A stretch of 64,000 nucleotides of DNA, taken from contig CBFGJN010000001.1 in assembly GCA_965649115.1 (NCBI GenBank), positions 13,576 to 77,575 on the forward strand, written 5' to 3'. Positions within the stretch are counted from its first letter, which is position 1. Each line of letters starts with the position of its first letter. Origin of the DNA: a candidate division WOR-3 bacterium (lineage in GTDB: Bacteria; Hydrothermota; Hydrothermia; LBFQ01; DSFT01). Shown here one piece after another: positions 5,475 through 56,735 of this stretch. The notes beneath the pieces are model-generated. The model made no database searches. It had not been told where the DNA came from and was given only the letters and a program-made list of their open reading frames with translations. The position numbers and the translations under genes are program-made.

Positions 5475-5729
5475 AGCTGTGTCTAATAATTCTGGAATTA
5501 TTTATTTTCCTCCTAAAACAAGGATTTCTAATAAATTTTCATAAGTTAAAGCATAATTCTAAAAATATAATCATTCCTATTTAAGGCTTCACAATTCATC
5601 AACCCTCCATTGTCTTGAAATGCTTGAAGTAATAGGGAATTAAAAAGGCTTAGAACCGAAGGCTCAATTCGTAGGGTGAGTGGTAAAAGTATAGAAATAA
5701 TTATACTCTCAGAATTTTTGGACACAGCA
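5475..5729. mobile_element. Degenerate composite of the intergenic MITE family (two outward-facing ends)
   Basis: Starts AGCTGTGTCTAATAATTCT, ends TTTTGGACACAGCA; internal ACCGAAGGCT and GGGTGAGTGG blocks. Confidence 0.7.
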
Positions 5730-5770
5730 AAAACCATTTATTTTTTAGCTTTAAAATTTTCAAAGTTTTT

Positions 5771-7039
5771 ATGCTTGATTTAAGTTATCTAAAGGGAGAA
5801 AAACTTGAAAAATTAAAAAGTAGTTTAATAAATAGAGGATATAGCTTAGATATTCTTGAAAAGATTTTGGATATTGATGGAAAAAGAAGGAAATTAATTA
5901 AGGAAGTGGATGATTTAAGAGCAAAGAAAAATGAGAAATCAAAAATTATTTCTCAAATGATATCAAAAGGAGAAAATGTAGATGATTTATTAAAGGAGGC
6001 AAGGGAAATTGATAATATGCTTGAACATTTGGAAGAAGAAAGAAGAAAAATTGAAAATGAATTTAATTATTATTGGAGTTTAATTCCAAACATTCCCCAT
6101 CAAAGTGTTCCTATTGGTAAAGATAGTTCTGATAATGTAGTAGTTAGAGAATGGGGTAGAATTCCAGAATTTGAATTTGAACCCAAACCACACTGGGAAA
6201 TATGCGAAAAACTTGATATTATAGATTTTAATATGGGAGGGGAATTAGCAGGTTCAAGATTTGTTGTTTATAAAGGAATTGGAGCAGAGCTTGAATGGGC
6301 TTTGATAAACTATTTTAGAGAATTTGCTAAAAAGCATGGATATAAAGAAATTATTCCACCATTTTTGGTAAATGAAAGAGTTATGTTCAATAGTGGCCAA
6401 TTACCAAAATTTAAGGATGAAATGTACTATATTGAAAAAGATGAGTTATATCTCGTTCCTACAGCAGAAGTTCCACTAACAAGTTTATTTATGAATAAAA
6501 CATTAGATGAAGAAGAATTACCTATATATTACTTTGCCTATACACCTTGTTTTAGGAGAGAAGCTGGCGCTTATGGTAAAGATGTTAGAGGAATTAAAAG
6601 AATGCATCAATTTAATAAAGTTGAATTATATAAATTTACACTTCCTGAAAATTCATATGAGGAACATGAAAAAATGGTAAGAGATGTTGAGGAAATTTTA
6701 CAAAGTTTGAATATTCCTTATAGAGTTGTTTTGCTATGTACTGGTGATATGGGCTTTGCATCAGCTAAAACTTATGATATTGAGGTTTATTGTGCAGGGC
6801 AAGGTGGTTATTTGGAAGCAAGTTCAATTAGTAATGTAGAAGATTTTCAAAGTAGAAGAGCTAATATAAAAGTTAAAAGAAAAAGTGGAAAGAAGGATTT
6901 TGTTCATACACTTAATGGTTCAGGTCTTGCAACACCAAGAGTCCTAATAAGTATTATTGAAAATAATCAAACAAAGGAAGGTTATGTTGTTATTCCTGAA
7001 CCTTTAAGAAAATATATTGGAGTTGATATTATTAAATGA
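5771..7039 (+). CDS. serS: Serine--tRNA ligase
   Basis: Coiled-coil arm, 'LVPTAEVPL', 'FRREAGAYGKD.RG..RMHQF.KVE', 'HTLNGSGLA..R'. Confidence 0.98.
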   Translation: MLDLSYLKGEKLEKLKSSLINRGYSLDILEKILDIDGKRRKLIKEVDDLRAKKNEKSKIISQMISKGENVDDLLKEAREIDNMLEHLEEERRKIENEFNYYWSLIPNIPHQSVPIGKDSSDNVVVREWGRIPEFEFEPKPHWEICEKLDIIDFNMGGELAGSRFVVYKGIGAELEWALINYFREFAKKHGYKEIIPPFLVNERVMFNSGQLPKFKDEMYYIEKDELYLVPTAEVPLTSLFMNKTLDEEELPIYYFAYTPCFRREAGAYGKDVRGIKRMHQFNKVELYKFTLPENSYEEHEKMVRDVEEILQSLNIPYRVVLLCTGDMGFASAKTYDIEVYCAGQGGYLEASSISNVEDFQSRRANIKVKRKSGKKDFVHTLNGSGLATPRVLISIIENNQTKEGYVVIPEPLRKYIGVDIIK

Positions 7040-7889
7040 AATTTTTAAGAAGTTTTCTTTCAATTTTTTCAATTATCCTATTTTTTTTGATGGTTTATTT
7101 TGCATTTAAAGATATTGATAAAATCAAGGAGATTTTAAAATTCTCAAATAAATTCTATCTTCTTTTATCAGGGATTTTTTTTTAGCGTTTAATTTATTTT
7201 CAATTTATATTGTTAAGTTTATCTATCATTTTTTTTCACTTGAATTATCATTTAAGAGAGCTTTTTATATTTCATTTATTTCAATTCTTGGAAGATACCT
7301 ACCTGGAAGGTTTTGGACATTTACATTACTTTTAGCATTCTCAAAAGCTTTAAATTTAGATTTGAAAGCAATTACAAAAGGTGCAATTTTAAATCAATTT
7401 TTCTTAATTTTTTCAGCAATTCCTGCGTTGTGTTTTTATTTTTTGGAAATAAAAAATTACTTACTATTTTTTATTTTTTTAATTTTTTTCCTTATCTTTC
7501 CATTAACATTACATTTTTTGTCTTTAAAGTACGAAATAAAATTAAATGTCTTTGTGTTTTTAAAAATTTTTTTAATGTTTTTAGTTCTTTGGTTTCTTGT
7601 GGGTTTTTCTTTATTTTTCTTTATTTTATCATTTTCAAAATCAATAAATTTATTTTATACAATTTTAATTTTTCCGATAGCTTATAACATTGGGATATTG
7701 TCTTTAATATCACCTGCGGGAATTGGTATAAGAGAGGGAGTTATGACATTTATGTTATTAAAGTTTTTTGATTTGGAATTTTCAAATAAAATTAGTGTTC
7801 TTTTTAGAATTTTTAATTTGATTATTGAATTGTTTCTTTCACTAATAGCTTATATTTTGTATAAATTAGATAAACTAAGTAGAATTTAA
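7036..7889 (+). pseudogene. Lysylphosphatidylglycerol-synthase-TM/YbhN flippase-like gene, frameshifted in a T9 run
   Basis: ATG 7036 overlaps the serS stop and ends at TAG 7183. One more T in 7175-7183 joins it to the frame with 'LGRYLPGRFW' and 'ISPAGIGIREG'. Confidence 0.7.
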
Positions 7890-8441
7890 CAGATTTACTA
7901 AATTTTCCTTGCTTAATGTATTCAGCTCAAAATTACCAAAATTTACTATAATTGCCCTATTTTTAATTTTAATAATCATAGGAAGAGCATAATAAGGCTC
8001 AATTCTTTTTAAAAAACTATAAATTTTTTCATTAAAGTCAAGAATCCCATCGTTTTCATCGTGAAGTTTTCCCTCGGGAAAAATAAAGAAGTAAAATTTA
8101 TTTGGAAATTCGTTAAGAAGTCTAATTGTTTTAATAATTGAAGCAGTTCTAATATGTTTTTCTTTAAATGGTAAAGTTAATGCAAATTTTGAAAAAAATG
8201 GATATTTTTCATATTCTTCCATCCAAATAATTATTTTTCTATCTTTAAGGATTGTTTTTCTTAACCTATTTAAAATATGAACATCATAAATATAAAAGTG
8301 ATTGGAATAAATAATAATTTTTTTATCTTTGTATTCACTAAAATTTGGAATGTTCAATAAAATTAACTTTCCAATCATTTTTAATTGAATTTCAAGAACA
8401 AGATCAACAAGAAACTTAGGATAATAACTTTTAATACTCAT
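7875..8441 (-). CDS. PlsC-family lysophospholipid acyltransferase
   Basis: 'SNHFYIYD' (HxxxxD) and 'IFPEG' motifs. Confidence 0.8.
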   Translation of the reverse strand: MSIKSYYPKFLVDLVLEIQLKMIGKLILLNIPNFSEYKDKKIIIYSNHFYIYDVHILNRLRKTILKDRKIIIWMEEYEKYPFFSKFALTLPFKEKHIRTASIIKTIRLLNEFPNKFYFFIFPEGKLHDENDGILDFNEKIYSFLKRIEPYYALPMIIKIKNRAIIVNFGNFELNTLSKENLVNLLNST

Positions 8442-8532
8442 ATCAATAGAAAATGTTAAAGATTAGGTAAAAATAGACTTTATTTATTAAGCAAAACACA
8501 AATTTTTCATTTACTTTAAAATTTCAAACTTT

Positions 8533-9477
8533 ATGAAAACAATTGATTATCTTTTGAAATTTGACGGTAAAATTGTTTTAATTGTTCATAAAAATCCTGA
8601 CCCTGATTGTATTGGTAGTGCATTAGCACTTTACAAATTTTTAAAAAATTTTAAAAGTGATGTTAAAATTGTTTCAAAAGATGAACCACCTCAAAACTTG
8701 GATTATTTGAAAGGATTTAATGAGATTATTGTTAATAATTTTCAGGATGCTAATTTATATGTCTTAATTGATACACCTAATATAAAAAGAACAGGTTTTG
8801 ATAATTTTAATTTTAATAATAAAAATATAATAAAAATTGACCATCATATTTCTGATGATAAATATAGTGAATTTGATTATGTTAAGATTGAGGCTCCTTC
8901 AACAACATATCTGATTTTAGAACTTATAAGAAATTATAATGAAAATTATTTAGATGAAGATATGGCTGAGTGTATTTTTATAGGACTTGTAGGTGATACG
9001 GGTAGCTTTTCATATTCAAACTTGAAGTTAGCATTTGAAGCAGCTTTGTATTTAGCAAATAAAGGTTATGATTTATCTAAATTTTCAGAGAGATATTCAA
9101 GAAATAATTCAATAAGTAGATTTTGTTTAATTAGGAAGGCTCTTGAAACATTAAAGCAAGATGGTGAGATTGCTTATATTGTAATAAGAAAGCATTTTTA
9201 TGATGATTGTAGTGCTAAAAAATATGAAAATTTTGGAATTGTTGATTATCCACTTTCAATAAAAGGTGTAAAGGTTGCTTTGAAATTTGAAGAAATAGAA
9301 AATAATAAATGGAAAATAAATTTAAGAAGTAAAAAGGAAATAGATGTTCAAAAATTTGCTTCGCTTCATGGTGGTGGAGGACATAAGAATGCTTCTGCAT
9401 TTGAAAAGTTAGGAACAGAAGAAGAGGTTATAAATGAGGTTATTTCTGATTTGAAGGAATATCTAAAAAGCTTTTGA
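8533..9477 (+). CDS. nrnA: DHH/DHHA1 phosphoesterase (NrnA-like)
   Basis: 'H.NPD.D.IGS', 'IDHH', 'DTG.F', 'GGGGHKNAS'. Confidence 0.9.
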   Translation: MKTIDYLLKFDGKIVLIVHKNPDPDCIGSALALYKFLKNFKSDVKIVSKDEPPQNLDYLKGFNEIIVNNFQDANLYVLIDTPNIKRTGFDNFNFNNKNIIKIDHHISDDKYSEFDYVKIEAPSTTYLILELIRNYNENYLDEDMAECIFIGLVGDTGSFSYSNLKLAFEAALYLANKGYDLSKFSERYSRNNSISRFCLIRKALETLKQDGEIAYIVIRKHFYDDCSAKKYENFGIVDYPLSIKGVKVALKFEEIENNKWKINLRSKKEIDVQKFASLHGGGGHKNASAFEKLGTEEEVINEVISDLKEYLKSF

Positions 9478-10582
9478 TTTCATCAATTTCAGATTTTTTG
9501 TTTACTTTTAAAATTTCTAAAAGTTGATTAAAATCTTTATTGGTTAATTCATATAAGAATTGGATAATAGAAGCAAATCCACTTCCAATTAAAAATTTTA
9601 ATTGCTCGTAATCTATATTTTTAAAATTGAGAACCATAAGTTTCAAGTAATAGTCAGCAATTTTCAAATTATAATTCTCATCAAATTGTTCAGTTATATG
9701 TTTTGGTAAATTTTCAAATTTTAGAACTTTATTATCTAAGGATAATGCATATTTTATAGCATTTTCAATTTCGCTAAAATTTCCAAACCAAGGATAAGTT
9801 AAGAATGCTTTATAAAAGTTATCTTCAATCTCAATAAAATCATTTGAAATTTTCCTTAAAAAGTGTTCTAAAATTAGTAATTTTTCTTTATTGTTTCTTT
9901 CACTTATTGAGGGAATATAAATTGAAGGGATTGTCAATAAATTTTGTGGAGGAGATATTTTATCAGTAATAAAAATAATTCTCTGACCACGTTTATAAAT
10001 TTCATTTATAGCAAAATTCAAATCATATTCGTTTTCAAATAAATCTATATTTAGTATAATGATTGATTTTTCAGTTTTTTTATTATCAGTTTTGAATCCA
10101 GCATGTTTTTCCTCAATCTCAAAATAATCAATAGCATTTTCAAGAATTGATCTAATAATTGTTAATTTGCCAACACCTCTTTGACCATATATTAATATCC
10201 AAGGATTATAAGGACTTTTTAGTAATGTTTCAAGTTTTTCGTAAGTCTCCATTGTTTGACCATAATAGCAAACAAATTTAACATTTGCAGGTTTTAGGCT
10301 GTCTAAGTTGTAAAATTTATTATAAAAATCAGAAATTCTTTGTCTTATTGTCTTCTTTGAATAATCATTTAAGAAATTTTTAATTTCATCTTTATTTTCA
10401 AATGACCAATCTACTGATTTAAAATTCGTTTTACCAATTGTAATAGTTAGATAATTTAAGGATAATTCATATAATTTTTTATGGTTGTTAGGAATTATTA
10501 CAATATCGGGAATATCAGTTATAGATTTTGCTAATTCGTATTGTTCAATTTTTAGATCCTTTACTAAATTAAGAATTTTCAA
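9440..10582 (-). CDS. Degenerate sigma54-activator-like AAA+ protein
   Basis: 'ILIYGQRGVGK', 'IPSISER', 'YPWFGNFSEIENAI'; no GAFTGA. TTG start. Confidence 0.6.
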   Translation of the reverse strand: MKILNLVKDLKIEQYELAKSITDIPDIVIIPNNHKKLYELSLNYLTITIGKTNFKSVDWSFENKDEIKNFLNDYSKKTIRQRISDFYNKFYNLDSLKPANVKFVCYYGQTMETYEKLETLLKSPYNPWILIYGQRGVGKLTIIRSILENAIDYFEIEEKHAGFKTDNKKTEKSIIILNIDLFENEYDLNFAINEIYKRGQRIIFITDKISPPQNLLTIPSIYIPSISERNNKEKLLILEHFLRKISNDFIEIEDNFYKAFLTYPWFGNFSEIENAIKYALSLDNKVLKFENLPKHITEQFDENYNLKIADYYLKLMVLNFKNIDYEQLKFLIGSGFASIIQFLYELTNKDFNQLLEILKVNKKSEIDEIKSFLDIPSNQK

Positions 10583-10589
10583 TAATAAG

Positions 10590-10662
10590 AGCGAGCGACG
10601 GGACTCGAACCCGCAACCCCCAGCTTGGAAGGCTGGCGCTCTACCAATTGAGCTACGCTCGC
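10590..10662 (-). tRNA. tRNA-Gly(TCC), CCA not encoded
   Basis: GCGAGCGTAGCTCAATTGGTAGAGCGCCAGCCTTCCAAGCTGG...GGTTCGAGTCCCGTCGCTCGCT cloverleaf. Confidence 0.97.
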
Positions 10663-10690
10663 AAGGTTTAAAATTTTAAAGCATAAGTTT

Positions 10691-11527
10691 ATGGATGGTT
10701 TTATCCTCATAAACAAACCAAAGGGTTGGACATCTTACGATGTTATTAGGGTTTTAAAGAAGTTATTTAATGTTAAAAAAATAGGACACTCTGGGACATT
10801 AGACCCTTTTGCAGAAGGACTTTTAATTATTGGGATAAATAAAGCTACAAAATTTATTGAATTCTTGATGAATTTACCAAAGGAGTACATTGCTAAAATT
10901 AAACTTGGTGCTGAAACGGATACACTTGATATAGATGGTGAAATTGTAAATTACGATAATAACTTTAAATTAAATAGAGAAATTCTTGAAATGGTTATTA
11001 ATGATTTTCCAAGAGATTATGAGCAAATTCCACCAAAATTCTCTGCTAAGAAAATTGATGGAAAAAGGGCTTATGAATTAGCAAGGGAAGGTAAGGAATT
11101 TGAATTAAAACCAAAACTTGTAAGTATATATGATTTGAAAATTGAAGATATTGATGAGGTTAATAATGAAGCTATTTTTTATCTTAAAGTTAGTTCTGGG
11201 TTTTATGTTAGAAGTTTTGCAAGAGATTTAGCCAATAAAATGGGAACATTTGGATATTTATTAGAATTAAAAAGGATAGCAATTGGTAATTTTAAAATAG
11301 AAAAAGCACATAGTATAAATGATAAAGAATTTAAACTTATTCAAATTGATACTGCTCTTGATTTTATAGAAAAAATTGAAATTCTTGATTGTAGAAAATT
11401 CAAAAATGGCCAGATTACAACTTATAAATACAAAGATGGAATTTATAGAGTTTACTGTGATAGTAATTTTTTAGGAATAGGAAAAATTGAAAATAATTTA
11501 TTAAAACCATTAAAAGTTTTGACTTAA
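10691..11527 (+). CDS. truB: tRNA pseudouridine(55) synthase
   Basis: 'NKPKGWTSYD', 'GHSGTLDPFAEG', 'PPKFSAKK..G.RAYELAR'. Confidence 0.97.
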   Translation: MDGFILINKPKGWTSYDVIRVLKKLFNVKKIGHSGTLDPFAEGLLIIGINKATKFIEFLMNLPKEYIAKIKLGAETDTLDIDGEIVNYDNNFKLNREILEMVINDFPRDYEQIPPKFSAKKIDGKRAYELAREGKEFELKPKLVSIYDLKIEDIDEVNNEAIFYLKVSSGFYVRSFARDLANKMGTFGYLLELKRIAIGNFKIEKAHSINDKEFKLIQIDTALDFIEKIEILDCRKFKNGQITTYKYKDGIYRVYCDSNFLGIGKIENNLLKPLKVLT

Positions 11528-11637
11528 ATAGTTTTAAATTGCTTGGTATCGGGTGGCTTTTTGGCTTTAAAAACTCCATTTTTTGGCATTGGGGGTTCGC
11601 CTTTATAAATACTTTGGGTGAGAAATTCCAAATTACC

Positions 11638-11820
11638 TGCTTTGTCCAATAAATAATGTTAAATGCCTAATAATCAATAACTTATAAAATTTTTAAGGAA
11701 ATTATTGAATTTTAGCCCCCCATAACCGAAAAATGGGTATTTTTAAGCCGAAGGCTTAATTTCAGGGTGGGTGGGAAAAATATAGAAAAATAAATAATTT
11801 CAGAATTATTAGACACAGCA
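11638..11820 (+). mobile_element. MITE copy (183 bp) with both inverted ends
   Basis: TGCTTTGTCCAATAA...TTATTAGACACAGCA; AAGCCGAAGGCTT hairpin; degenerate fragments just upstream. Confidence 0.85.
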
Positions 11821-11855
11821 TAATTTCAGGAAATTTATCCTTTAAACTTTTCATA

Positions 11856-13319
11856 GTGGAAAAATTGTCTATTGAAATTTCTAATGGTGCTATTGGTTTT
11901 TCGCTTCCAGAGTTAGATGTGCCAGAAGTTAAAATTGATGAGAGAATTCCAAGTCATTTATTAAGAAAAACAGAATTGAATTTACCTCAAATTTCTGAAA
12001 ATGAAACATTTAGACATTTTTTGAGATTATCTCAATTGAATTATAACATTGATAAAGGAATTTATCCACTTGGTTCTTGTACTATGAAATATAATCCTAA
12101 AATAAATGAGGAATTGGCAAGGCACTATAAATTCGTTAATATCCACCCTCATACACCTATTGAATTTTCACAAGGTTGTTTAGCAATAATATATGAGTTA
12201 TCTGAATTATTAAAAGAAATATCGGGAATGGATGCTGTTAGCTTACAAGCGGTAGCAGGTGCTCAGGGAGAATTGGCGGGTGTTTTAATTATTTCAAAGT
12301 ATCATAAAATGAAAAATGAAAAACGAGACATTATATTAGTTCCCGATTCAGCACATGGAACTAATCCAGCAACTGCTACACTTGCAGGTTTAAATACTAT
12401 TGAAATTAAAACTATTGAAACAAATGGAATTTTAAGGGCTAAATTGGTTAAGAAAGAAGTTGAAAATTATGGAGAAAGAATAGCAGGTTTAATGATTACA
12501 AATCCAAATACACTTGGTATATTTGAAGAAGAAATATATGAAATTTCGCAAATGCTTCATCAAATAGATGCACAAATATATATGGATGGAGCAAATATGA
12601 ATGCATTAGTAGGGAATATAAAGCCTTCAAAATTTGGTATTGATGTAATGCACTTTAATTTACATAAAACATTTTCAACACCTCATGGAGGTGGTGGTCC
12701 TGGTAGTGGAGCAATTGCTGTTAAAAAACATCTTGAAAAATTTTTGCCAAATCCAAGAATTAGGAAAATTGGTGAGAAGTACGAGTTAGTTTATGAAGAT
12801 GAAGAATATAGCATTGGAAGATTACATAGTTTTTATGGAAATTTTGGAATGTTCATTAGAGCATTAGTATATATAAGAATGCTTTCAAGTGAAGGATTGA
12901 AAATGATTTCATATTTGGCGGTTTTAAATGCTAATTATTTGAGGAAAAGACTTGAAGAAATAGGATTTAAGATATCTTTTGATATGCCAACAATGCATGA
13001 ATTCGTTTTAACATTAAAAGATATAAAAGAAAAATATAATGTAAAAGCGTTAGATTTTGCTAAAAGAATTCTAGATTATGGTTATCATGCACCTACAATT
13101 TATTTCCCTCTAATCGTTGAAGAAGCATTTATGATAGAACCGACTGAAAGTGAAAGTAAAATTTCACTTGATAATTATATTGAAGTTTATAGAAAAATTT
13201 TAAATGAGATAAGAGAAAACCCTGAAATTGTCCTTTCTGCTCCATTAAATACTCCTGTATCAAGACTTGATGAAGTTAAGGCAGCAAAAGATTTAATTGT
13301 AAAATGGCAAGATATTTAA
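11856..13319 (+). CDS. gcvPB: Glycine dehydrogenase (decarboxylating) subunit 2
   Basis: 'YPLGSCTMKYNP', 'SAHGTNPA', 'NLHKTFSTPHGGGGPG', 'MIEPTESE'. Confidence 0.97.
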   Translation: MEKLSIEISNGAIGFSLPELDVPEVKIDERIPSHLLRKTELNLPQISENETFRHFLRLSQLNYNIDKGIYPLGSCTMKYNPKINEELARHYKFVNIHPHTPIEFSQGCLAIIYELSELLKEISGMDAVSLQAVAGAQGELAGVLIISKYHKMKNEKRDIILVPDSAHGTNPATATLAGLNTIEIKTIETNGILRAKLVKKEVENYGERIAGLMITNPNTLGIFEEEIYEISQMLHQIDAQIYMDGANMNALVGNIKPSKFGIDVMHFNLHKTFSTPHGGGGPGSGAIAVKKHLEKFLPNPRIRKIGEKYELVYEDEEYSIGRLHSFYGNFGMFIRALVYIRMLSSEGLKMISYLAVLNANYLRKRLEEIGFKISFDMPTMHEFVLTLKDIKEKYNVKALDFAKRILDYGYHAPTIYFPLIVEEAFMIEPTESESKISLDNYIEVYRKILNEIRENPEIVLSAPLNTPVSRLDEVKAAKDLIVKWQDI

Positions 13320-13828
13320 TGCTATTTTTTATTTTTGGTTGTTTAAATGCCCAAAACTCTCTAAAATTAAATGAAGAGAAATTAAATGAATTTATTAAAA
13401 AAAATTTTAAAAATTATCAGCTCTTTGAAAAGCCTATTATAAGAAAACAATATAAAAATTTTATTCTTGTTGATTTTGCTTATGCTGGTGCAACAGGAAA
13501 TTATTCGGTTTTGATTATAAATAAAAACAATAATTTTCAAATTGCAAAACTTAAAAATAAAGAAATTAAAAATGCTATATTTCTAATTGCTTCAGGAGGA
13601 GCTGGAAGATATAGTTCTTATGTGGAACTTGATGATAAATTAAAAGTTTTTGAATATTCAATTTATGGAGAGGATAATGATTATTGTAGGGTTGAAGTTT
13701 ATAGTTTTCAAAAAGGTTATTTTATTTACGACAAAACTTTAAGTGATATAGAAAGGAAAAATTATTGTAAAAAAATTTGTGAAATGCTTTCAATTGAAAG
13801 TAAAGTTTGTAAAACCTTGGAAAAATAA
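13304..13828 (+). CDS. Hypothetical lipoprotein or exported protein
   Basis: MARYLMLFFIFGC lipobox-like N-terminus. Confidence 0.55.
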   Translation: MARYLMLFFIFGCLNAQNSLKLNEEKLNEFIKKNFKNYQLFEKPIIRKQYKNFILVDFAYAGATGNYSVLIINKNNNFQIAKLKNKEIKNAIFLIASGGAGRYSSYVELDDKLKVFEYSIYGEDNDYCRVEVYSFQKGYFIYDKTLSDIERKNYCKKICEMLSIESKVCKTLEK

Positions 13829-13892
13829 ATCATTATAAGGACTAATATAGGGTAATCTGCCCCCCATAAAAACTATATTTTCTTAAAATTTT

Positions 13893-14849
13893 TTAGTCAC
13901 TTATTTCCATTACAATTTTTCCTCTAACATGACCGCTTTCTAATATCTTATGAGCTTTTTTAACACTTTCAACACTAAATGGTAAAACCTCTGAAATTAT
14001 TGGTTTCACTAATCCCCTTTCAATAACTTCCTTCATTTCTTCAAGTCTTTTACTTTCTCTTGTTAAGAAAATCCCATATAGAGTTATATTATTTCTATAA
14101 AGCAATGATAAATCTCCTTTCGGTGGTAATATACAAGCAACCCTTCCAAAAGGTTTAATTACAGGTAAAACTCTTGAAACGATGTTATCACCTTGAATAT
14201 CAAAAGCACAGTCAACCCCTTTATTTTCAGTTATTTCCATAACAATTTTATTTACATCGTCATTATAGTCAATAACATAATCTGCTCCAATTTGCTTTAA
14301 GAAGTCAAAATTTCTTGGACTACTTGTTGCAATTACTCTTGCAGAAATCATTTTAGCAAACTGAACAGCAAAAGAACCAACACCACCTGCTCCCGAATGA
14401 ATAAGAATTGTCTCGTAAGGCCTTATATTTAACCTTCTAACAATTGCTTCCCAGGCTGTTCCTCCTGCTAAGGGAACAGCTGATGCTTCAATGAATGACA
14501 AATTTTTTGGTTTTTTTGAAACAATGTTTGCTTTAACAACATTATATTCTGCATAAGCACCATTTGGATTATTATATATTTCAGGAGTGTAATAAACTTC
14601 ATCACCGACTTTAAAATCTTTAACACCTTCCCCAACTTCTTCAACAATTCCACTTACATCATAACCTATTATAATAGGTGGCTTTAATCCAGCCCAAGTT
14701 CCATTTATTCTTATTTTATAATCAACAGGGTTAAAAGCAACTGCCTTAACCTTCACAAGTATTTCGCCAGCATTAGGTTTTGGTTTTTTCATTTCAGTCA
14801 TTTCAAAGTTTTCAACATCTCCAAACTCTTTAAGAACGATCGCACGCAT
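13893..14849 (-). CDS. MDR-family NADPH:quinone reductase-like oxidoreductase
   Basis: 'NPVDYKIR', 'GYDVSG.V', 'HSGAGGVGSFAVQ', 'GHVRGKIV'. Confidence 0.9.
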   Translation of the reverse strand: MRAIVLKEFGDVENFEMTEMKKPKPNAGEILVKVKAVAFNPVDYKIRINGTWAGLKPPIIIGYDVSGIVEEVGEGVKDFKVGDEVYYTPEIYNNPNGAYAEYNVVKANIVSKKPKNLSFIEASAVPLAGGTAWEAIVRRLNIRPYETILIHSGAGGVGSFAVQFAKMISARVIATSSPRNFDFLKQIGADYVIDYNDDVNKIVMEITENKGVDCAFDIQGDNIVSRVLPVIKPFGRVACILPPKGDLSLLYRNNITLYGIFLTRESKRLEEMKEVIERGLVKPIISEVLPFSVESVKKAHKILESGHVRGKIVMEISD

Positions 14850-14886
14850 AGTTTGAAAATTTTAAAGCTTTTTAGAGACTTTCAAT

Positions 14887-15028
14887 TGCTGTGTCTAGCC
14901 TAAAAATAAGGCTTCGCCTTATAAATGCCCATTTTTCGGCTATGGGAGGGCTTAAATTCAATAATTTCATTAAAAATTTTACAAGTTCTTGATCGTCAAG
15001 GACTTAACACTATTTATTGGACAATTGT
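14887..15028 (-). mobile_element. MITE copy, internally deleted, overlapping the 3' end of 14979..15548
   Basis: TGCTGTGTCTAG at 14887, AAGGCTTCGCCTT hairpin, TTATTGGACAA at ~15014. Confidence 0.8.
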
Positions 15029-15548
15029 ATAATTGCAAATTTCTATTTATAATTTCTTTTAAATTTTTCAAAGTTTGACTTTTTTCAAAATTAGTGAAAA
15101 TAATTTCTAAAACTTGTTCAAATTTAAATTCAGATTTGAGTTCCTTCAATTTGCCATAATTAGTTCCTTTTATTTCTTTATATATTTCATTTACAAAACT
15201 TTCAATTGCTTTTGGTTTGACAATCCAAACTTGATGTTTGGGATTTTGTTTCTTTTTAAAAATTATCATTAAATCATTTTCGCATGAATTATAATCTTCA
15301 TGGAGTTTTAATTTTTTAGCGAGTTTATCAAAATGTTGTTCATTATCATAATCAAAAACTGCAATTATTAGTTTATTTTTATTATTATTTTTAATTCTTT
15401 TACAATAAGTTTTTATAACTCCATCATAACCACCTGTTTCTACTTCATCTGAGCAGTGTAAAACATCACAAACAGCATTTAGTTTTAAAAAATCTCGTAA
15501 TTTCTTAAAAAATGAGTAATCATTATTACATTCAACAATAAAAATCAT
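14979..15548 (-). CDS. Putative TOPRIM-fold nuclease partner of the adjacent ATPase
   Basis: 'FIVECNND' and 'AVFDYD' resemble TOPRIM E and DxD motifs; ATGA overlap with the ATPase. Confidence 0.55.
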   Translation of the reverse strand: MIFIVECNNDYSFFKKLRDFLKLNAVCDVLHCSDEVETGGYDGVIKTYCKRIKNNNKNKLIIAVFDYDNEQHFDKLAKKLKLHEDYNSCENDLMIIFKKKQNPKHQVWIVKPKAIESFVNEIYKEIKGTNYGKLKELKSEFKFEQVLEIIFTNFEKSQTLKNLKEIINRNLQLYNCPINSVKSLTIKNL

Positions 15549-16673: not shown

Positions 16674-16790
16674 TGCTGTGTCTAGGAATTCTAAAATCAT
16701 TTATTTTTCACCCTTTAAATAAAGCTTCGCCCTAATAAAATCAATAATCTCAAAAAAGTTTTTATAAGTTTGTGTCTAATAATTAATACC
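16674..16790 (-). mobile_element. Truncated MITE copy
   Basis: TGCTGTGTCTAGGAATTCT end; AAAGCTTCGCC; AATCAATAA; second TGTGTCTAATAA near 16771. Confidence 0.75.
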
Positions 16791-25192: not shown

Positions 25193-25340
25193 TGCTTTGT
25201 TTAATAATTCTAAAATTATTTATTTTTCTTTATTTCCCCACCCACCCTAAAAATAAGCCTTCGGCTTATAAAAGCCCCTATTTTTTTTCAGGAGGCTTTG
25301 CCCCCTTATTAACCCCCATAAAATCAATAGGGACTTAAAA
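25193..25340 (-). mobile_element. Truncated MITE copy
   Basis: TGCTTTGTTTAATAATTCT, CCCACCCACCCT, AAGCCTTCGGCTT, GGAGGCTTTGCCCC. Confidence 0.8.
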
Positions 25341-25343
25341 TAT

Positions 25344-25988
25344 CTATAAAAAATTATCTATGCTAACTTCAAAAACTTCTTTAAAAATTCTTTCATTAAG
25401 AAGTGTTGAATAAATTTTTCCATTTTTCATAATAATAAAATCTTTAAAATACTTAATTGCTAAATGAATATCGTGAATTGTTAAAATAACTGTCTTGTTA
25501 ATTTGATTTAGGTAATTTAAGAGTTTTATTTGGAAGTAAGGATCCAAGTGAGATAATGGTTCGTCAAGTATTAAAATTTTTGAATCTGAATTAATAACTC
25601 TACTTAACCTAACTCTTTGAATTTCTCCACTTGAAAGTTCATCTAATTTTTTGTTTAATAGGTTTGATATTTCAAAAATATCATATTTTAGTTTTATATT
25701 TGCTAAATTTAAATATGTTTTAACTTTTATGCTTGGGCAATATTCAACTTGTAATAAAAAAGAACAAAGTCTTGTAAGTTCTTTTTGACTAATTTCACTT
25801 AATTCTTTATTAAATAATTTTATAGAGCCTTCATAATTTAACATTTTTAGTAGGGTTTTTATAAGTGTGCTTTTACCACTTCCATTCGGACCTAAAATGG
25901 CAATTTTCTGTCCTTCGTAAATTTCTAAATTACCTATATGAATTTTAAAATTTTTATAACCTGAAATAACATTTTTTAATTTTAACAA
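25344..25988 (-). CDS. ABC transporter ATPase (FepC/BtuD-like)
   Basis: 'GPNGSGKST', 'LSSGE.QR', 'LDEPLSHLD..FQ', 'IHD'. Confidence 0.85.
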   Translation of the reverse strand: MLKLKNVISGYKNFKIHIGNLEIYEGQKIAILGPNGSGKSTLIKTLLKMLNYEGSIKLFNKELSEISQKELTRLCSFLLQVEYCPSIKVKTYLNLANIKLKYDIFEISNLLNKKLDELSSGEIQRVRLSRVINSDSKILILDEPLSHLDPYFQIKLLNYLNQINKTVILTIHDIHLAIKYFKDFIIMKNGKIYSTLLNERIFKEVFEVSIDNFL

Positions 25989-35012: not shown

Positions 35013-35519
35013 TGCTTTGTTCAATAAAAATTTTAAGAAAACTATTGATTTTAGCGGGTTTTTAAGGGGGGCAAAGCCCCCCATAACCGAAATAGACACA
35101 GCAAATATATTTTGCTTTGTCCAGTAATTATTGTCAATCACTTGATAATCAATAACTTATAAAATTTTTAGGGAAATTATAGATTTCATTAGGGGGATTT
35201 TAGGGGGGCGAAGTCCCCCACAGCCTAAAAATGGGCATTTTAAAGCCGAAAGCTTTTATTTAGGGTGAGCGAGGAAAAATAGTAAAATAAATAATTTTAG
35301 AATTATTAGACACAGCAAATATATTTAACTTTGTCTAGTAATTGGTGTTAAGTTATTGATAATCAATAATTTGTGAAAACTTAATAAAATTATTGTCTTT
35401 ATGGGGGTTTTAAGGGGGGCGAAGCCCCCCATAGCCGAAATATGGGTATTTTAAAGCCGAAGGCTTAATTTTAGGGTGGGTGGGAAAAATAAATGGTTTT
35501 AGAATTACTAGACACAGCA
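35013..35519 (+). mobile_element. Tandem MITE cluster: 35013-35103, 35113-35317, 35327-35519
   Basis: Each copy ends GACACAGCA and is followed by the same 9-mer AATATATTT. Confidence 0.9.
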
Positions 35520-39014: not shown

Positions 39015-39166
39015 AAAAATTATTTTAATGAGACTTTTGATTTCATGGGGGGATTGAAGGGGGTGGTAGCCCCCTACTGCTGAAAAATGTGTATTTTAAA
39101 GGTTCCACCTTGGTGGATGGGTAAAATAAAGAAATAATCTATATTTTAGAATTACTAGACAAAGAA
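39015..39166 (+). mobile_element. Diverged MITE copy
   Basis: GGGGGTGGTAGCCCCC, AAGGTTCCACCTT, end AATTACTAGACAAAGAA. Confidence 0.75.
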
Positions 39167-43218: not shown

Positions 43219-44130
43219 ATGATAATTGTTCATGGTGGTGCAGGTGAATGGAATGAAGAAAAATTTAAAATTGCTGAAAAAATTTTAATTAAAGCAGTAG
43301 AAGAAGCATTAGAAATTTTAAGAAAAGATGATGACCCTATAACTGCTTGTGAAACAGCTATTAAAATTCTTGAAGATGAACCTATCTTTAATGCAGGAAC
43401 GGGAAGTGTTTTGAATATATTTGGTGAGGTTGAAATGGATGCAAGCATTATGCGTGGAGATAATTTAAAAGCAGGGGCTGTTGCAGGTATTAAAAATATT
43501 AAAAATCCAATCAGTTTAGCAAGGAAAATTATGGAAGAAACTGAACATGTTTTAATAATTTCAGAAGGCGCTCAAAAACTTGCTAAAACCTTTGGATTTG
43601 AAGAATATAATCCTATTACAGATGAAAGTATTGAAAAGTACAAAAAGGCAAAAGAAAATTTTGATAAAATTAATAGTTTGAAACATATTAAAGAATTTAT
43701 GGAAAAATATCCAAATTATTTCATTGGAACTGTTGGAGCAGTTGTTGTAAATAGTAAGGGAGTTATTGTAAGTGGTTCTTCAACAGGTGGGACAATTTTA
43801 AAATTAAAGGGTAGAGTTGGAGATACACCCTTAATTGGTGCAGGAATATATGCTAATGATGTTTGTGGAGCAAGTGCAACAGGAATAGGAGAGGGCATAA
43901 TTAGAGTAAATTTAAGTTCATTTGTTTGTTATTTAGTTAAATTTGGAGTTTCAGTTGAAAATGCTACAAAAAGTGCTATTGATTATTTAACTCAAAAAGT
44001 AAATTTGCCAGCAGGTATTATTGCTGTTGATAAATATGGAAATGTAGGATTTTATCATAATACAAAATATATGCCTGTTGCCTACTATAAAGATGGTGAA
44101 ATTCAAACAAAATTTAGTTGTTTTGTCTAG
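43219..44130 (+). CDS. iaaA: Isoaspartyl peptidase/L-asparaginase
   Basis: 'IVHGGAG', 'FNAG.GS', 'EMDASIM', 'GTVGAV', 'GRVGDTP', 'SATG.GE'. Confidence 0.93.
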   Translation: MIIVHGGAGEWNEEKFKIAEKILIKAVEEALEILRKDDDPITACETAIKILEDEPIFNAGTGSVLNIFGEVEMDASIMRGDNLKAGAVAGIKNIKNPISLARKIMEETEHVLIISEGAQKLAKTFGFEEYNPITDESIEKYKKAKENFDKINSLKHIKEFMEKYPNYFIGTVGAVVVNSKGVIVSGSSTGGTILKLKGRVGDTPLIGAGIYANDVCGASATGIGEGIIRVNLSSFVCYLVKFGVSVENATKSAIDYLTQKVNLPAGIIAVDKYGNVGFYHNTKYMPVAYYKDGEIQTKFSCFV

Positions 44131-44240
44131 TAATTCCAATTTCGGTTATGGGGGGCAAAGCCCTCTTAACCCCCGATAAATCAACTATTTTAAGGACTTA
44201 ACAATAATTACTGAACAAATAGTTCGGCTGTGGGGCTGAG
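44119..44240 (-). mobile_element. Deleted MITE copy between convergent genes
   Basis: TGTTTTGTCTAGTAATT end, GGGGGGCAAAGCCCTC hairpin, AATAATTACTGAACAAA end. Confidence 0.7.
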
Positions 44241-45690: not shown

Positions 45691-46195
45691 TGCCTTGTCC
45701 AATAATTCTGGAAATATAATTATTTCTATATTTTCCCACCCGCCCTAAAAATAAGCCTTCGGCTTTAAAAAACCCCATCTTTTGCTATGGGGGGCTCTGC
45801 CCCCCATAAAGTGCCCCCATTATTTCAAGTATTTCAATTAATACTTAATAAGTAGTTGATTATCAATCACTTAGCAATAATTATTGGACAAAGCAAGAGT
45901 TAGTTGCTGTGTCTAAGAATTCTGAAAGTATTTATTTTTCTTATTTTGCCCACCCGCCCTGAAATAAAGGCTACGCCTTTAAAATGCCCATTTTTCGGCT
46001 GTGGGGGGCTCCGCCCCCCATTAGATCCCCCATAAAATCAATAGTTTTATTGAAATTTTCGTAAGTCATTGATAATCAAGGATTTAACAATAATTATTGG
46101 ACAAAGCAATTTTTTTGTGCTGTGTCCAGTAATTCTGAAATATAAAATAATTCTTTTTCCCCCGAAAAATCAAGAGTTTTAATTAACAATATTTT
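45691..46195 (-). mobile_element. Tandem MITE cluster: 45691-45895, 45905-46108, partial from 46118
   Basis: Two full copies (205 and 204 bp) ending TTATTGGACAAAGCA; all junctions are 9 nt. Confidence 0.9.
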
Positions 46196-46216
46196 TCATG
46201 CTTTAAAATTTTCAAA

Positions 46217-46400
46217 CATGCAGGCGACAGGGAAGAGGGGTGAAATTCCCCCGCTGTCCCAGCAGCCGTGATGGGCATAAAAATTGCCCCTGAAAGCCAC
46301 TGCCGAAAGGTGGGAAGGCTCAGGGGTTTTTAGCCCTAAGCCGGAAGACCTGCCTGCATGCTTCAAAACCCTTCCTGCTGGGGTTCAGGAAGGGGGGAGG
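46217..46400 (+). ncRNA. Cobalamin riboswitch with expression platform
   Basis: P1 CATGCAGGC/GCCTGCATG; 'GCCACTG...GGGAAGGC'; B12 box 'AAGCCGGAAGACCTGCC'; kissing loop CCCAGC (46258)/GCTGGG (46377) next to SD GGAGG. Confidence 0.93.
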
Positions 46401-50066: not shown

Positions 50067-50074
50067 ATTGAGAT

Positions 50075-50364
50075 AAACTTTATTGGGGGTAGGGTTTTAA
50101 GGGAGTCCCCCCATAGCCTAAAAATGGACATTTAAAAGATGGATTTTTTAAAGCTGTGGGCTTAATTTTTAGGATAGGTAGGCAAAATATAGAAATACAA
50201 TAACTTATAAATTTTTAAGGAAATTGTTAATTTATTGGGGGAAATTAAGGGGGGCGAAGCCCCCCACTGCCGAAAAATGGGTATTTTTAAGCCGAAGGCT
50301 TAATTATAGGGTGGGTGGGCAAAATATAGAAATGAATATATTTTTAGAATTATTGGACACAGCA
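50075..50364 (+). mobile_element. Two consecutive partial MITE copies
   Basis: Duplicated CCCCCA.(T)GCC.AAAAATGG blocks; GGGGGGCGAAGCCCCCC; end TTATTGGACACAGCA. Confidence 0.85.
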
Positions 50365-51890: not shown

Positions 51891-52680
51891 TTTCTTAATT
51901 TCTTGTCAAATGAGAGATTATTATGTCCTTGGGGTATTTCCTTCTCAAAAAGAAATTGCTACTTACACTGAACTACAAAAAATAGCAGAAGATTTATCAA
52001 AAGAACTCAAAAGACCTGTCAGATTATATATTGGTAATAATTATGAGGATATGGAAAATAAACTAAAAGTTGGATTTTTTGACTTTGCATTTGTTCCCTC
52101 TTTAATTTATATTGAAGTTAGTGATAAATATGAAATGGTTTTGAAGTTTTTAAGGAATAATAAAGGATTTTACAGAGGACAATTCGTAGTTTTAAAAGAC
52201 ATTGATAGTATTAGTCAATTAAGAAATAAAAATTGGGCTTTTCCTGATAAAAAATCTACAAGTGGTTATTTGCTTCCAAAATATATGCTTTTGAAAATGG
52301 GTATAGATCCAGATACATTTTTTAATTATCAATATGAAGCAGGTTCCCACGATAAAGCAATTGAATTGCTTATAAGAGGAAATGTTCAATTAGCTACTAC
52401 TTTTGAAGATGTTAGAGAAAGAATGAAAGATAAATTTCCTGATATTTTTGAAAAAACTAAAATTCTTCTTTATACTGATTCTATACCTAATGATGGCTTC
52501 GCAATAAATAGAAAAATAAAAGGTATTGAAAAAGAAAAAATTATAGAGTCAATTAAGAAGGTTGTTAAAAATAATGGTGATTTATTTTATAGATTTTTAG
52601 GTAGCAAAGAACTTATTCCTGCAAGCGATAGCGATTATAAGATATTGTGGGATATTAAAAATAAAATTAGTGTTAAATAA
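51862..52680 (+). CDS. PhnD-like phosphate/phosphonate-binding lipoprotein
   Basis: Lipobox LISC; 'AFPD..STSGYLLP', 'GSHD', 'IPND'. Confidence 0.88.
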   Translation: MRFLGFLFLSFLISCQMRDYYVLGVFPSQKEIATYTELQKIAEDLSKELKRPVRLYIGNNYEDMENKLKVGFFDFAFVPSLIYIEVSDKYEMVLKFLRNNKGFYRGQFVVLKDIDSISQLRNKNWAFPDKKSTSGYLLPKYMLLKMGIDPDTFFNYQYEAGSHDKAIELLIRGNVQLATTFEDVRERMKDKFPDIFEKTKILLYTDSIPNDGFAINRKIKGIEKEKIIESIKKVVKNNGDLFYRFLGSKELIPASDSDYKILWDIKNKISVK

Positions 52681-52768
52681 TTTATAAAAAATTTTCTGAA
52701 ATTATTGTTTTAATGGGGGCTCCGCCTCCGAGGCATAAAAATGGGGTATTTATAAGCCGAAGGCTTAT
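52672..52768 (+). mobile_element. Truncated MITE copy
   Basis: GGGGGCTCCGCCTCC and TAAGCCGAAGGCTTA hairpins. Confidence 0.7.
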
Positions 52769-52799
52769 ATTATTTTAATCTATCCTTTAAAATTTTCAT

Positions 52800-53958: not shown

Positions 53959-54265
53959 AATTATTCAGTTAATTATTGAAAAAAAAGGTTTTGATATCGT
54001 CATTATTGAACTTAAAGGAATAACGAATATCGCTGATTACTTTATTTTGGCAAGTGGTTGGACACCTGAGCATTTAGTAGCGATTGCTGAAAATATAGAA
54101 AAAGAGTTTGAACCATTTAGAGAAGATGGAAGAGGAAGTAAATGGTTATCTATTGATTATGTTGATATTATTATTCATTTATTTACAAAAGAAGCAAGAG
54201 AATTTTATGACCTTGAAGGATTTTGGATTAAAGCTCCTCAAAAGAAAATTCTTCTTACCTTATAA
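53945..54265 (+). CDS. rsfS: Ribosomal silencing factor
   Basis: 'KKG.DI', 'ADYFILASG', 'W..IDY.DIIIHLF...REFYDLE..W'. Confidence 0.92.
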
Positions 54266-56636
54266 TTCCAACGCAAGCTATTAAATCATTTTCAGATAAG
54301 TCTATTAATTTGACTCCTCCTGCATTTCTTGAATATTCTTGTAAATTTGAAATATCTATTCTTAAAGCTATGCCATTTTTTGTAATTATTATTAAATTTT
54401 CATTTTCAAGAAAACTATCTATAACTTCTATTAGAGAGCCTATTTTTTCATTTGATTTTAAAATATAAACACCTTTTGCAGGTCTTTTTAAGGTAGGTAT
54501 TTCACTTTCTTTAACCTTCTTGCCATAGCCTTTACTTGTAATTGTTATAACCTTTGAATTCGGTAATATAATGCAACCTGATATGATATTTTTCCCAATT
54601 GTTCCTTTAACACCACTACCTTTTCTACTTTGAATAGGAATATCACTTTGTTTAATTCTTAACACTTTTCCATCTTCCTTAGCTATTAGTATATCTTCTT
54701 CACCAATAGTAAATAAGCATTTAATTACTTCATCATTTTCTTTCAATTTAATAATATAACTTCCCATTCTACCTTTCAAAACTTCATCTATTCTAACTCT
54801 TTTGATTTTTCCAAATTTCGTTAAAATAACAATAAATTTAGCATCCTCATCTGGTAAAATATCAATGACTTTTTCATTTTCTTTTAATGGCAAAAATTGA
54901 TTTATAGACCTTCCTTTACTTGTTAGACTCATTTCAGGTATTTTGTAAGCCTTCATCCAAAAAATTCTTCCTTTATTCGTTATGAAAAATAATTGGGAAT
55001 GTGTATTACAAACACAAATTTTATATGGAAAGTCATTATCATTCATAGTTATTCCAGTTTTTCCTTTCGTTCCACGATTTTGACTTTTAAAACTTTTTAA
55101 AGACATTCTTTTAATATAACCTCCATTTGTTATTAAAACTACAACATCTTCCTTTTGTATCAAATCCTCAATTTCCAAACTAATTTCATCTTTTTCGCTA
55201 TCTATAATTTTTGTTCTTCTTTTATCTGCAAATTTTTCCTTAATTTTTATTAATTCTTCTTTTATGAGCTTATAAAGTTCATTTTTATCTTTTAACAATT
55301 TTTCATAAGTTTTAACTTCCTCTTCAAGTTGTTTATATTCCTTCAAAATTTTCTCTCTTTCAAGTTTTGTTAAATTTTGAAGTTTAATTTCTAAAATTGC
55401 ATTTACTTGTTCAAGTGTAAATTTAAATTTATTTATAAGTTTTTCCCTTGCACTTTGAACATCTTCACTATTTCTAATTATCTCAATTATTTCGTCTAAA
55501 TTTTCAATTGCTTTTAAAAAACCTTCCAAAACATGCATTCTAAATTTAGCTTTATTTAATCTAAATTTCGTTCTTCTTATTATTACTTCCTCTCTGAATT
55601 TCACAAAAACTTCTATTAGTTCCTTTAAATTAAAAAGTTTAGGTTGGTTATTTAAAATAGCTATCATGTTTATGCTGAATGTATCTTGAAGTTTTGTATG
55701 TTTCATCAATTGATTTAAAACAATTTGTGGTTCATAACCTCTTTTTACTTCAATAACAACTCTCAAACCTTCTTTATCAGATTCATCTCTAATGTCAGAA
55801 ATTCCTTCAATAACTCCTTCTCTTACAAGTTGTGCAATTTTACCAATTAGTTCAGCTTTATTAACAAGATAAGGAATTTCTTTTATTATAATATCTTTTT
55901 CCTCAATTTCATATTTTGCCCTTAATGTTATTTTTCCTTTTCCAGTTTTATATGCATCGTAAATTCCTTTTCTTCCAACAATTATTCCTCCTGTTGGAAA
56001 ATCGGGACCTTTTATAAATTTCAATAATTCTTCAATCGTAATATTTGGATTGTCAATATATGCGATTGTTCCATCAATAATTTCGCCTAAATTATGAGGT
56101 GGAATACTTGTTCCCATACCGACTGCTATTCCAACCGCTCCATTTACCAATAAATTTGGGAAACCAGCAGGTAATAGAACTGGTTCTTTGTACCTTCCAT
56201 CAAAGTTATCAACAAAATCTACAACATCCTCATCTATATTATTTAAAAGTTCTAATGTTATTTTTTCAAGTCTTGCTTCTGTGTATCGGTAAGCTGCTGG
56301 TGGGTCACCATCAATTGAACCAAAATTTCCTTGTCCCTCAATAAGAGGGTATCTCATATGAAAATCTTGGGCAAGTCTAACAAGTGCATCATAAACTGCT
56401 TGGTCACCATGAGGGTGGTACTTTCCTATTACTTCACCAACAACTGTTGCTGATTTTCTAAATGGCCTATTAGGTAATAATCCCATATCGTACATTGCAT
56501 ATAAAATTCTCCTTTGAACGGGTTTTAATCCATCTCTTGCATCAGGTATAGCTCTACTTATAATTACACTTAAAGCATACTTTAAATAACTTTCTTTTAA
56601 CTCTTCTTCAAATTCGGAATTTATAAGTTTATTCAT
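54255..56636 (-). CDS. gyrA: DNA gyrase subunit A
   Basis: '[16 protein letters not shown]', 'HPHGD', '[10 protein letters not shown]', GyrA-box-like QNRGTKG. Confidence 0.93.
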
Positions 56637-56674
56637 AAGTTTGAAAATTTTAAAGTTGGATAAGTTTGTTTTTT

Positions 56675-56735
56675 TGCCTTATTTTTCCAACTCACCCTGA
56701 AAGTAAGGCAGAGCCTTGCAATAGTCTTTTAATAA
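56675..56735 (-). mobile_element. Heavily deleted MITE copy
   Basis: TGCCTT end joined to TTTTTCCAACTCACCCTGAAA and AAGGCAGAGCCTT hairpin. Confidence 0.6.

Follow-up and report, generated by a model that had tools for sequence, protein, structure and literature searches.

An IS903-type insertion sequence and a short non-coding element with the same ends probably home to promoters in a candidate division WOR-3 bacterium

Why should one end of a repeated DNA element lie the same number of nucleotides upstream of one promoter box after another? The question is raised by a 64,000-nt stretch from a candidate division WOR-3 bacterium (assembly GCA_965649115.1, contig CBFGJN010000001.1, positions 13,576-77,575), which we call the window and in whose own numbering features are given. 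A preliminary description of this DNA had reported a non-coding intergenic element of ~205 bp at about 14 loci, with one end 22 nt upstream of TAAAAT-like -10 boxes. We analyzed the element in the window, in the whole genome and in related genomes. Judging from sequence comparison, it is most probably one of two members of a promoter-homing family, an IS903-type insertion sequence (IS) and a ~204-bp MITE (miniature inverted-repeat transposable element), which share their ends and would insert 22 nt upstream of the box in one orientation.

The element itself is real. Its two end motifs (at most 3 mismatches) occur 20 and 23 times in the window, where shuffled sequences give an expectation of 6.0 and 3.0 and no shuffle equalled the observed counts, and 17 regions align as one element of ~204 bp. 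From left to right it consists of a left end of the form TGCTTTGTCCAATAA, an internal box resembling a promoter, one hairpin rich in G (GGGGGGC-GAA-GCCCCCC), another hairpin (AAGSC-GAA-GSCTT) with a T run behind it, a G-rich stretch and an inverted right end (...TTAGACACAGCA). An nhmmer profile built from seven window copies returns 16 hits or fragments, which puts the element at ~12 intergenic loci of the window; it misses an eroded remnant upstream of gyrA at 56675 and two end-only fragments (22082 and 46118). All nine end-to-box distances quoted in the preliminary description are exact, eight being 22 nt and one, at an ATPase gene, 21 nt. Applied to the whole genome (G000; 1,848,020 bp in 99 contigs, 27.6% G+C), the same profile yields 705 hits at E<=0.001, which cover 94,988 bases or 5.1% of the genome; 217 of them are full-length on a model of 204 positions. 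Perfect 9-nt repeats flank 93 of the 207 full-length copies that have flanks, and 107 when one mismatch is allowed. The next 9 nt outward, taken as a control, are identical in 0 of 206 pairs, and repeats of other lengths are found in 10/207 copies (8 nt) or in none (6, 7 and 10-12 nt). The element thus has what characterizes a MITE: it is small and multi-copy, carries no transposase, ends in inverted repeats flanked by target duplications, and has an IS as its cognate. No Rfam family reaches threshold on it.

Across the genome, the distance between element and box has a sharp peak at 22 nt. We measured from 471 right ends to the first TTTAAAAT (at most 1 mismatch) and found 22 nt in 127 cases, 21 nt in 43, 13-15 nt in 54, 56 nt in 25 and other distances in 96; no box was present in 120 cases, and 6 had too little flank. 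The 56-nt class corresponds to the internal box of the next tandem copy. A stricter box, CTTTAAAAT (at most 1 mismatch), lies at 21-22 nt from 181 of 465 right ends; for left ends the count is 3 of 314, and for random positions 17 of 5000. The element is thus fixed in one orientation relative to the promoter, in line with the earlier remark on the end that faces the gene. When the 471 right ends are sorted by what follows them, 145 have, 21-22 nt away, a box with a gene start behind it, 25 have at this distance a box with no open reading frame (ORF) of at least 60 amino acids, 109 are followed by another copy after ~9 nt, and 54 lie 13-15 nt from a box.

There is no transposase among the 54 ORFs of the window, as had been stated, and the cognate IS of ~1.05 kb was found outside it. 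Where the end motif occurs apart from MITE hits, it is clustered 100-127 nt from contig ends and bounds a different interior. This second element is represented by 10 left ends and 16 right ends, the latter mutually 100% identical; evidently, the assembler has collapsed a multi-copy IS. Its interior was not found in G000 or in six other genomes of the same family, and had no exact-pattern match in genome-contig or metagenome-contig collections. The left end carries a box of its own (ATTTAAAAT, without the C that precedes the host box), an ATG 12 nt after the T, and a reading frame beginning MGKINWQKYNKELVRRGEIW. The first 49 encoded residues are 96% identical to a 300-residue metagenome protein, P0001, and the C-terminus of P0001, LIMNSFYSYSNLAD, is encoded by the right-end fragment just before the stop codon, as read by eye. 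P0001 scores 245.5 bits (cut-off 140) against NF033579, which we take to be the model of the IS903 group, with residues 5-292 of 300 aligned to positions 2-288 of 289, and contains the Pfam domains DDE_Tnp_1 (PF01609) and DDE_Tnp_1_5 (PF13737). Only IS5-family models match, and these comparisons place the transposase in the IS5 family, IS903 type. It is not a Mutator-like enzyme such as those of the TnGBS and ISLre2 elements, which the preliminary description had named as known cases, and the likeness to these would thus be convergent.

The IS would measure 67 + 903 + 82 = ~1052 bp, and its inverted ends are ~15 bp long and again of the form TGCTTTGTCCAATAA. This length, together with a 9-bp duplication seen on the MITE that shares the IS ends (each IS copy being split over two contigs), would fit the IS903 group. 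The MITE agrees with the IS left end in its own left 25 nt and in where its internal box lies; we therefore take this box for a leftover of the promoter of the transposase. The IS keeps the same register as the MITE. By scan, 10 of its 16 right ends are exactly 22 nt from a box; by eye, the right end on contig C51 also lies at 22 nt (the scan was misled by an earlier near-match), and that on C54 lies 22 nt from a degenerate box. Three of the remaining right ends are followed by a MITE after 9 nt, and the one on C3 follows a MITE-end remnant. Since the IS copies are identical and therefore recent, their positions are not sculpted by long-term selection. At E 1e-20, no relative of P0001 turned up in 200 further genomes from the phylum, nor was one found in a single-protein search of the genome-contig collection, which carries little weight as metagenome-assembled genomes often drop repeats.

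Position statistics indicate that the TAAAAT box is a -10-only promoter of mostly leaderless genes and is separate from the element. The start codons of long ORFs are concentrated 12-17 nt after the T of TAAAAT, the spacing expected when transcription starts at or just before the start codon. There are 555 CTTTAAAATTT sites in G000, and 379 of them precede a gene start. Among these 379 promoters, the element is found at ~22 nt in 125, at ~14 nt in 38, elsewhere within 60 nt in 65, and not at all in 151; ~60% of the canonical promoters thus have an element within 60 nt. Occupied and empty promoters have a common consensus, tTat.CTTTAAAATTTTaAaa.T, and no -35 motif was found in either group in G000. 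The duplicated 9 bp are not conserved but merely A-rich. Outside elements, 409 of 728 boxes with a C in front precede a gene, versus 76 of 1715 without it. Boxes without the C thus rarely precede genes, a sign that this base is of importance to the promoter as such. The box is likewise found in front of tRNA genes (loci L130 and L234) and of a CRISPR array on contig C85. There (~101-400), the box has an IS right end 22 nt upstream and is followed by the array, the second one seen (repeat GTTTTTATCGTCCCTATAAGGGATTGAAAC); the CRISPR leader promoter is thus also a target.

We considered loss of sigma factor region 4 as a cause of the absent -35 motif. The main sigma factor is ordinary, with regions 1.2, 2, 3 and 4 present, which rules this cause out. 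At L252:540-603 (contig C12), its gene is preceded by AAGGAGG and by no box, so that leaderless and Shine-Dalgarno-led starts coexist in the genome.

The register recurs in related genomes. Counting G000, matches to the MITE DNA were obtained in 5 out of 41 genomes: strongly in the congeners G002 (many matches) and G003 (two), weakly in G004 and in one genome of another family, and not in G001. In the second species, G002, an element end followed by 5-35 nt and CTTTAAAAT occurs 57 times, with 23 cases at 22 nt, 4 at 21, 5 at 23, 10 at 14, 3 at 15 and 12 elsewhere, as counted from the individual matches; the pattern has no match in G001, G003 and G004, and a reversed control pattern has none either. 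Metagenome contigs that encode transposases related to P0002 (72% identical to P0001) provide 17 further right ends. Nine of these lie at 22 nt, two at 21 nt and two at 14 nt, two have no box, and two lie, by eye, 22 nt from the variant boxes TATACT and TATAAT (L237, L245). For the related copies L231-L238, which are full-length, both ends could be located. A MITE end and 9 nt precede six of the seven full-length IS copies on these contigs, and hence the newest insert adjoins the promoter. Distant relatives in archaeal genomes (32-38% identical) have the same kind of ends, and no shared flank motif was found in the 14 copies from 4 genomes that we examined.

Empty sites are found as well. The serS and gcvPB promoters of the four congeners G001-G004 have the box and no element. 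Conversely, the tRNA promoter L130 and promoter L142 are occupied in G002 and empty in G000. At loci L145 and L147, the same 22 nt are present in both species, and these insertions thus predate the species split. Logan contigs from four sequencing runs covering window positions 5000-17500 contain many MITE-to-MITE chimeric joints and no clean joint that skips a single MITE. Among the runs listed as containing this DNA, none is an RNA run. The genome-wide peak, the cognate IS and the empty orthologous promoters together support the earlier proposal of a non-autonomous element aimed by promoter geometry. A side observation from G002 concerns another interior: at C87:3786-5318 (L107:1501-3033), the same inverted ends bound a 1533-bp element in which a 456-residue ORF replaces the IS5 transposase and whose GGACAAGGCA end is again placed 22 nt upstream of a box. 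Pfam gives no hit for this ORF at E 0.001, and tblastn finds no copy in G000; the ORF's NPAWTSVQG motif is, we presume, reminiscent of TnpB-type proteins.

Full-length MITEs have a mean pairwise identity of 78%, which marks the family as old, and the identity of the IS copies shows that it is still active. Copies are often arrayed: there are ~100 head-to-tail junctions with a 9-10-nt gap and 2 tail-to-tail junctions. In 36 of 67 tandem junctions, the spacer is identical to the 9 nt that follow the downstream copy, and the same target has therefore been hit again. In the window, for example, AATATATTT is present three times, at 35104, 35318 and 35520. Repeated insertion at one 9-bp target builds such head-to-tail arrays. 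No junction shows an element inserted into a MITE at 22 nt upstream of the internal box, which is uninformative.

The 14-nt class probably derives from the 22-nt class, or else reflects a box that resembles the element's own end. In many of its cases, the 9-nt duplication runs straight into TGCTTT, the six bases with which the element end begins; a box with TG in front, which makes up TGCTTT, is seen in 9 of 18 copies of this class versus 12 of 86 copies of the 22-nt class; and orthologous promoters switch between the two classes (loci L139 and L146). The 14-nt product may have arisen by deletion between the end of a downstream copy and the box, or by attraction to an end-like sequence, and both routes would fit. 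It is conceivable that attraction accounts for the arrays and the 14-nt class alike, with elements drawn to a resident copy or to a TGCTTTAAAAT box, because these look like TGCTTT ends, and landing 9 bp upstream of it without reading the promoter. The abutting TGCTTT, the frequent TG before the box and the exact 9-nt spacers of the arrays are in line with this idea. We still regard it as unlikely, because it leaves the main 22-nt class unexplained, in which nothing end-like follows the duplication, because young IS copies mostly hold the promoter-proximal place in an array, and because a deletion between the downstream copy's TGCTTT and the box gives an identical 14-nt product.

The MITE interior is structured. 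Its two hairpins, each followed by a T run, are kept in >90% of copies, as measured by counting named base pairs across copies, and in the second hairpin one base pair covaries cleanly, reading CG in 131 copies and GC in 62 (~4% unpaired). Single copies fold better than shuffled sequences (z-scores -3.5 and -2.1). A terminator scan of window positions 34900-35700 finds one hairpin with a T run inside a MITE where 0.3 are expected, which is suggestive only. It is possible that the MITE acts as a transcription insulator in front of promoters.

Taken together, this family transposes with 9-bp staggered cuts, in one orientation and in fixed register to the box, and has a cognate IS5-family transposase. 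We propose that a family of cut-and-paste or copy-and-paste DNA transposons with two members and one pair of inverted ends has invaded the genus. Both members would place their right end 22 nt upstream of the first T in CTT-TAAAAT-TT, which appears to be the sole conserved promoter element of the host's mostly leaderless genes. A right end at 22 nt and a 9-bp stagger put the cuts 22 and 13 nt upstream of the box, which would correspond to ~-35/-34 and -26/-25 from the transcription start. The preliminary description had the element cutting where a -35 would lie. The joint does fall at ~-35/-34, but no -35 is removed, as these promoters show no -35 motif. The promoter should thus survive insertion, because the duplication keeps the DNA downstream of ~-34 and there is no -35 motif to lose, and an intact host promoter would in turn explain why ~60% of canonical promoters can be occupied. 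The orientation may be set by the difference between the two inverted ends, as argued for Mutator-like promoter-targeting elements (PMC3942029), and the transposition complex would measure its distance from the box.

How the distance is measured allows for two answers. We lean towards direct reading of the box DNA, because the landing point is inside the footprint of bound polymerase and the transposase has no extra domain. The other answer, to which we give somewhat less than an even chance, is that the transposase docks on promoter-bound RNA polymerase or sigma, so that a protein complex sets the distance. This would account for the 22-nt register at variant boxes (TAAACT at gcvPB, TATACT and TATAAT in the metagenome copies) and for insertions at tRNA-gene and CRISPR-array (C85) promoters as well as at those of protein genes. 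The same type of interaction has been proposed for TnGBS (PMC3942029), and remote relatives whose ends are of the same type lack such a preference, which makes the trait look like an add-on. Docking sits less well with a joint at ~-35 to -26, within the stretch covered by holoenzyme, given that TnGBS lands 15-17 bp upstream of -35; moreover, the match between the transposase and the plain family model runs from end to end, and thus no extra docking domain is visible.

Both answers presuppose that insertion is targeted. If elements instead inserted at random and only copies at a harmless position and in a harmless orientation survived, one would expect an old family with insertions shared between species, as is seen for the MITE, and gene-internal insertions would have been removed and be invisible. 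Yet the peak is sharp to a single base, although positions 30-60 nt upstream should be equally harmless, and the orientation bias is 181 to 3, although the outer 15 nt are nearly alike at both ends. The recent IS right ends, identical in all 16 cases, already obey the rule in 10-12 of them, and the same 9 bp have been targeted repeatedly. We consider this explanation very unlikely. Least credible of all, in our view, is that the 22 nt and the box belong to the repeat, as parts of a fixed regulatory module or mobile promoter. The element is indeed structured, with its conserved hairpins, covarying pair and favorable fold scores, and is present at most promoters. However, the 22 nt between end and box are unrelated between copies in a sequence logo, as already remarked in the preliminary description, and are not a uniform spacer, since they begin with the 9 nt of the target-site duplication; congeners without a MITE match keep the box at the same distance from serS and gcvPB; and 151 of the 379 canonical promoters have no element within 60 nt. 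The duplications and the empty orthologous promoters already contradict such a module.

Several observations weigh against targeted insertion as we propose it. The identity of the -10 box and the leaderless starts are deduced from position statistics, and the IS interior is absent from the assembly, so that its length of ~1052 bp is derived from two ends and a 96%-identical metagenome protein. Among the 471 right ends, 63 have no box within 45 nt, 69 have it at other distances and 6 are too short to tell; many of the off-register or boxless ends look like later deletions in the examples that we read. For boxes inside genes, selection is inseparable from targeting. Finally, the 78% identity of the MITEs and the insertions shared with G002 suggest that the pattern is largely old and has passed through selection.

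Oriented, promoter-directed insertion is already known from TnGBS, ISLre2 and ISKra4, as are IS903-type elements and their MITEs. The former have Mutator-like transposases and insert in one orientation at a fixed short distance upstream of housekeeping promoters (PMC3942029). They resemble the present family in the fixed distance, in the single orientation, which is ascribed to unlike inverted ends, and in that genes are spared. They differ in their transposase (p-MULT 3 or 4 there, IS5/IS903 type here) and in their register, which for TnGBS is 15-17 bp upstream of -35 (PMC3942029) and here 22 nt upstream of the -10 hexamer, at ~-35 and with no -35 motif. Unlike in these systems, a MITE has here multiplied to hundreds of copies. 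In the IS903 group of the IS5 family, ISPam1 and ISPpa8 from Paracoccus are 1050-1054 bp long and generate 9-bp direct repeats (PMC3281130). They are alike in their single DDE transposase of ~300 residues, in their inverted ends of 15-27 bp and in the 9-bp repeats, and would be alike in length if the IS measures ~1052 bp; they were caught on trap plasmids; outward-facing promoters are noted, and no promoter homing is reported in the consulted sections of that source (PMC3281130). A parallel for the pair of elements is MITEAba12 of Acinetobacter, 113 bp long with 90 copies across 31 genomes, which is mobilized in trans by an IS sharing its ends, ISAba12, with 9-bp duplications (PMC6382973). The ISAba12/MITEAba12 end GGCTTTGTTGCACAAA and TGCTTTGTCCAATAA share a GCTTTGT core. 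MITEAba12 differs in using AT-rich targets without a motif and in that it can land inside genes such as hns (PMC6382973); here, there are 705 hits in one genome in a fixed register to promoters. At the level of abstracts, we found no description of promoter homing by an IS5-family element.

In the literature that we found, promoter homing by a bacterial DDE transposase was thus confined to Mutator-like enzymes, and the present family would be a second, unrelated one with a different and sharper register, indicating that this safe-harbor strategy evolved more than once. Its small enzyme of 300 residues is suited to asking how a transposase measures promoter distance. The element makes up ~5% of a 1.85-Mb genome and is found within 60 nt of ~60% of canonical promoters, including those of the essential genes gyrA and serS, and the insertions, by marking promoters, provide a free map of transcription units in an uncultured lineage, tRNA and CRISPR promoters included. 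A more far-reaching reading is that an ordinary IS903-type transposase with no added domain has evolved to read a -10-only promoter, either as DNA or with polymerase bound, and integrates at its upstream edge to the exact base, that the host has since kept the MITE as a transcription insulator before most promoters, and that the element and the leaderless promoter architecture lacking a -35 have shaped each other; we offer this combination tentatively and hold it to be rather doubtful.

Within the window, the copies are in various states of decay. Upstream of serS (TIGR00414), a composite remnant (5476..5729, +; nhmmer hits 5476-5511 on the minus and 5651-5729 on the plus strand) has its right end at 5729, 22 nt before the TAAAAT box (5752..5757, +), and the ATG follows at 5771. 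The minus-strand part of this composite (5476-5511), seen by nhmmer and in the sequence, is an inverted right-end fragment that abuts the box of a minus-strand gene. At this minus-strand site (5461-5489), the exception for which the preliminary description gave 1 nt, the element end ...GACACAGC passes directly into TTTAAAATTTT, the element's GC supplying the pre-box bases, which looks like a deletion that fused element and promoter; right ends 2-7 nt from a box number 28 genome-wide. A 183-bp copy with an internal deletion lies upstream of gcvPB (11638..11820, +; box TAAACT at 11843, 22 nt away), and another internally deleted copy at an oxidoreductase gene (14887..15024, -) reaches with its right end to 14887, leaving 22 nt to the box at 14864. 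The truncated MITE at the ATPase gene (16674..16782, -) stops at 16674, its right end, 21 nt short of the box at 16652. A copy lacking the left ~43 positions was located by nhmmer at 25193..25350 (-), with its right end at 25193, from which the preliminary description had counted 49 nt to a box.

The three-copy head-to-tail array on the plus strand is the clearest case of repeated targeting. Its first member, internally deleted (35013..35103; identified by end motifs, alignment and nhmmer), is followed by the first copy of the 9-bp duplication AATATATTT (35104..35112), a full-length MITE of 205 bp (35113..35317; nhmmer E 1e-56), the second duplication copy (35318..35326) and the MITE nearest the promoter (35327..35519). 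The third duplication copy (35520-35528) and the box at 35542, which belongs to locus 35554 and lies 22 nt from the right end, complete the array; the duplications are read from the alignment of the copies starting at 35013, 35113 and 35327. At a permease gene, a copy without its left part (39023..39166, +) ends 22 nt from the box at 39189. Copies between convergent genes had been named as exceptions, and the fragment at 44119..44219 (-) indeed has no box adjoining it. A gene for a GT2-deacetylase is preceded by a full-length MITE (45691..45895, -) whose right end, at 45691, is 22 nt from the box at 45668. A second full-length copy (45905..46108, -) lies head-to-tail with it across a 9-nt spacer, and an end-only fragment follows at 46118-46132. 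At locus 50400, two partial copies (50076..50364, +) extend to a right end at 50364, and the box follows 22 nt on, at 50387; an internal fragment without ends was detected by nhmmer at 52675..52770 (+); and the eroded gyrA remnant (56675..56735, -), which ends in ...AAGGCA, is 22 nt from the box at 56652.

Directly downstream of the MITE array at 45691-46132, a cobalamin riboswitch (RF00174, 85.8 bits; 46205-46371, +) is located upstream of a gene starting at 46358. Elsewhere in the window, a tRNA gene (10590-10662, -) ends 8 nt before the TTG start of the next ORF on the same strand (9440-10582, -). A CRISPR array (62060-63893) with at least 27 repeats (GTTTAAATTCCACTACGTTCAGATGAAAC) reaches the end of the window, and one of its spacers occurs twice (62468-62565 and 63061-63158, 99% identical).

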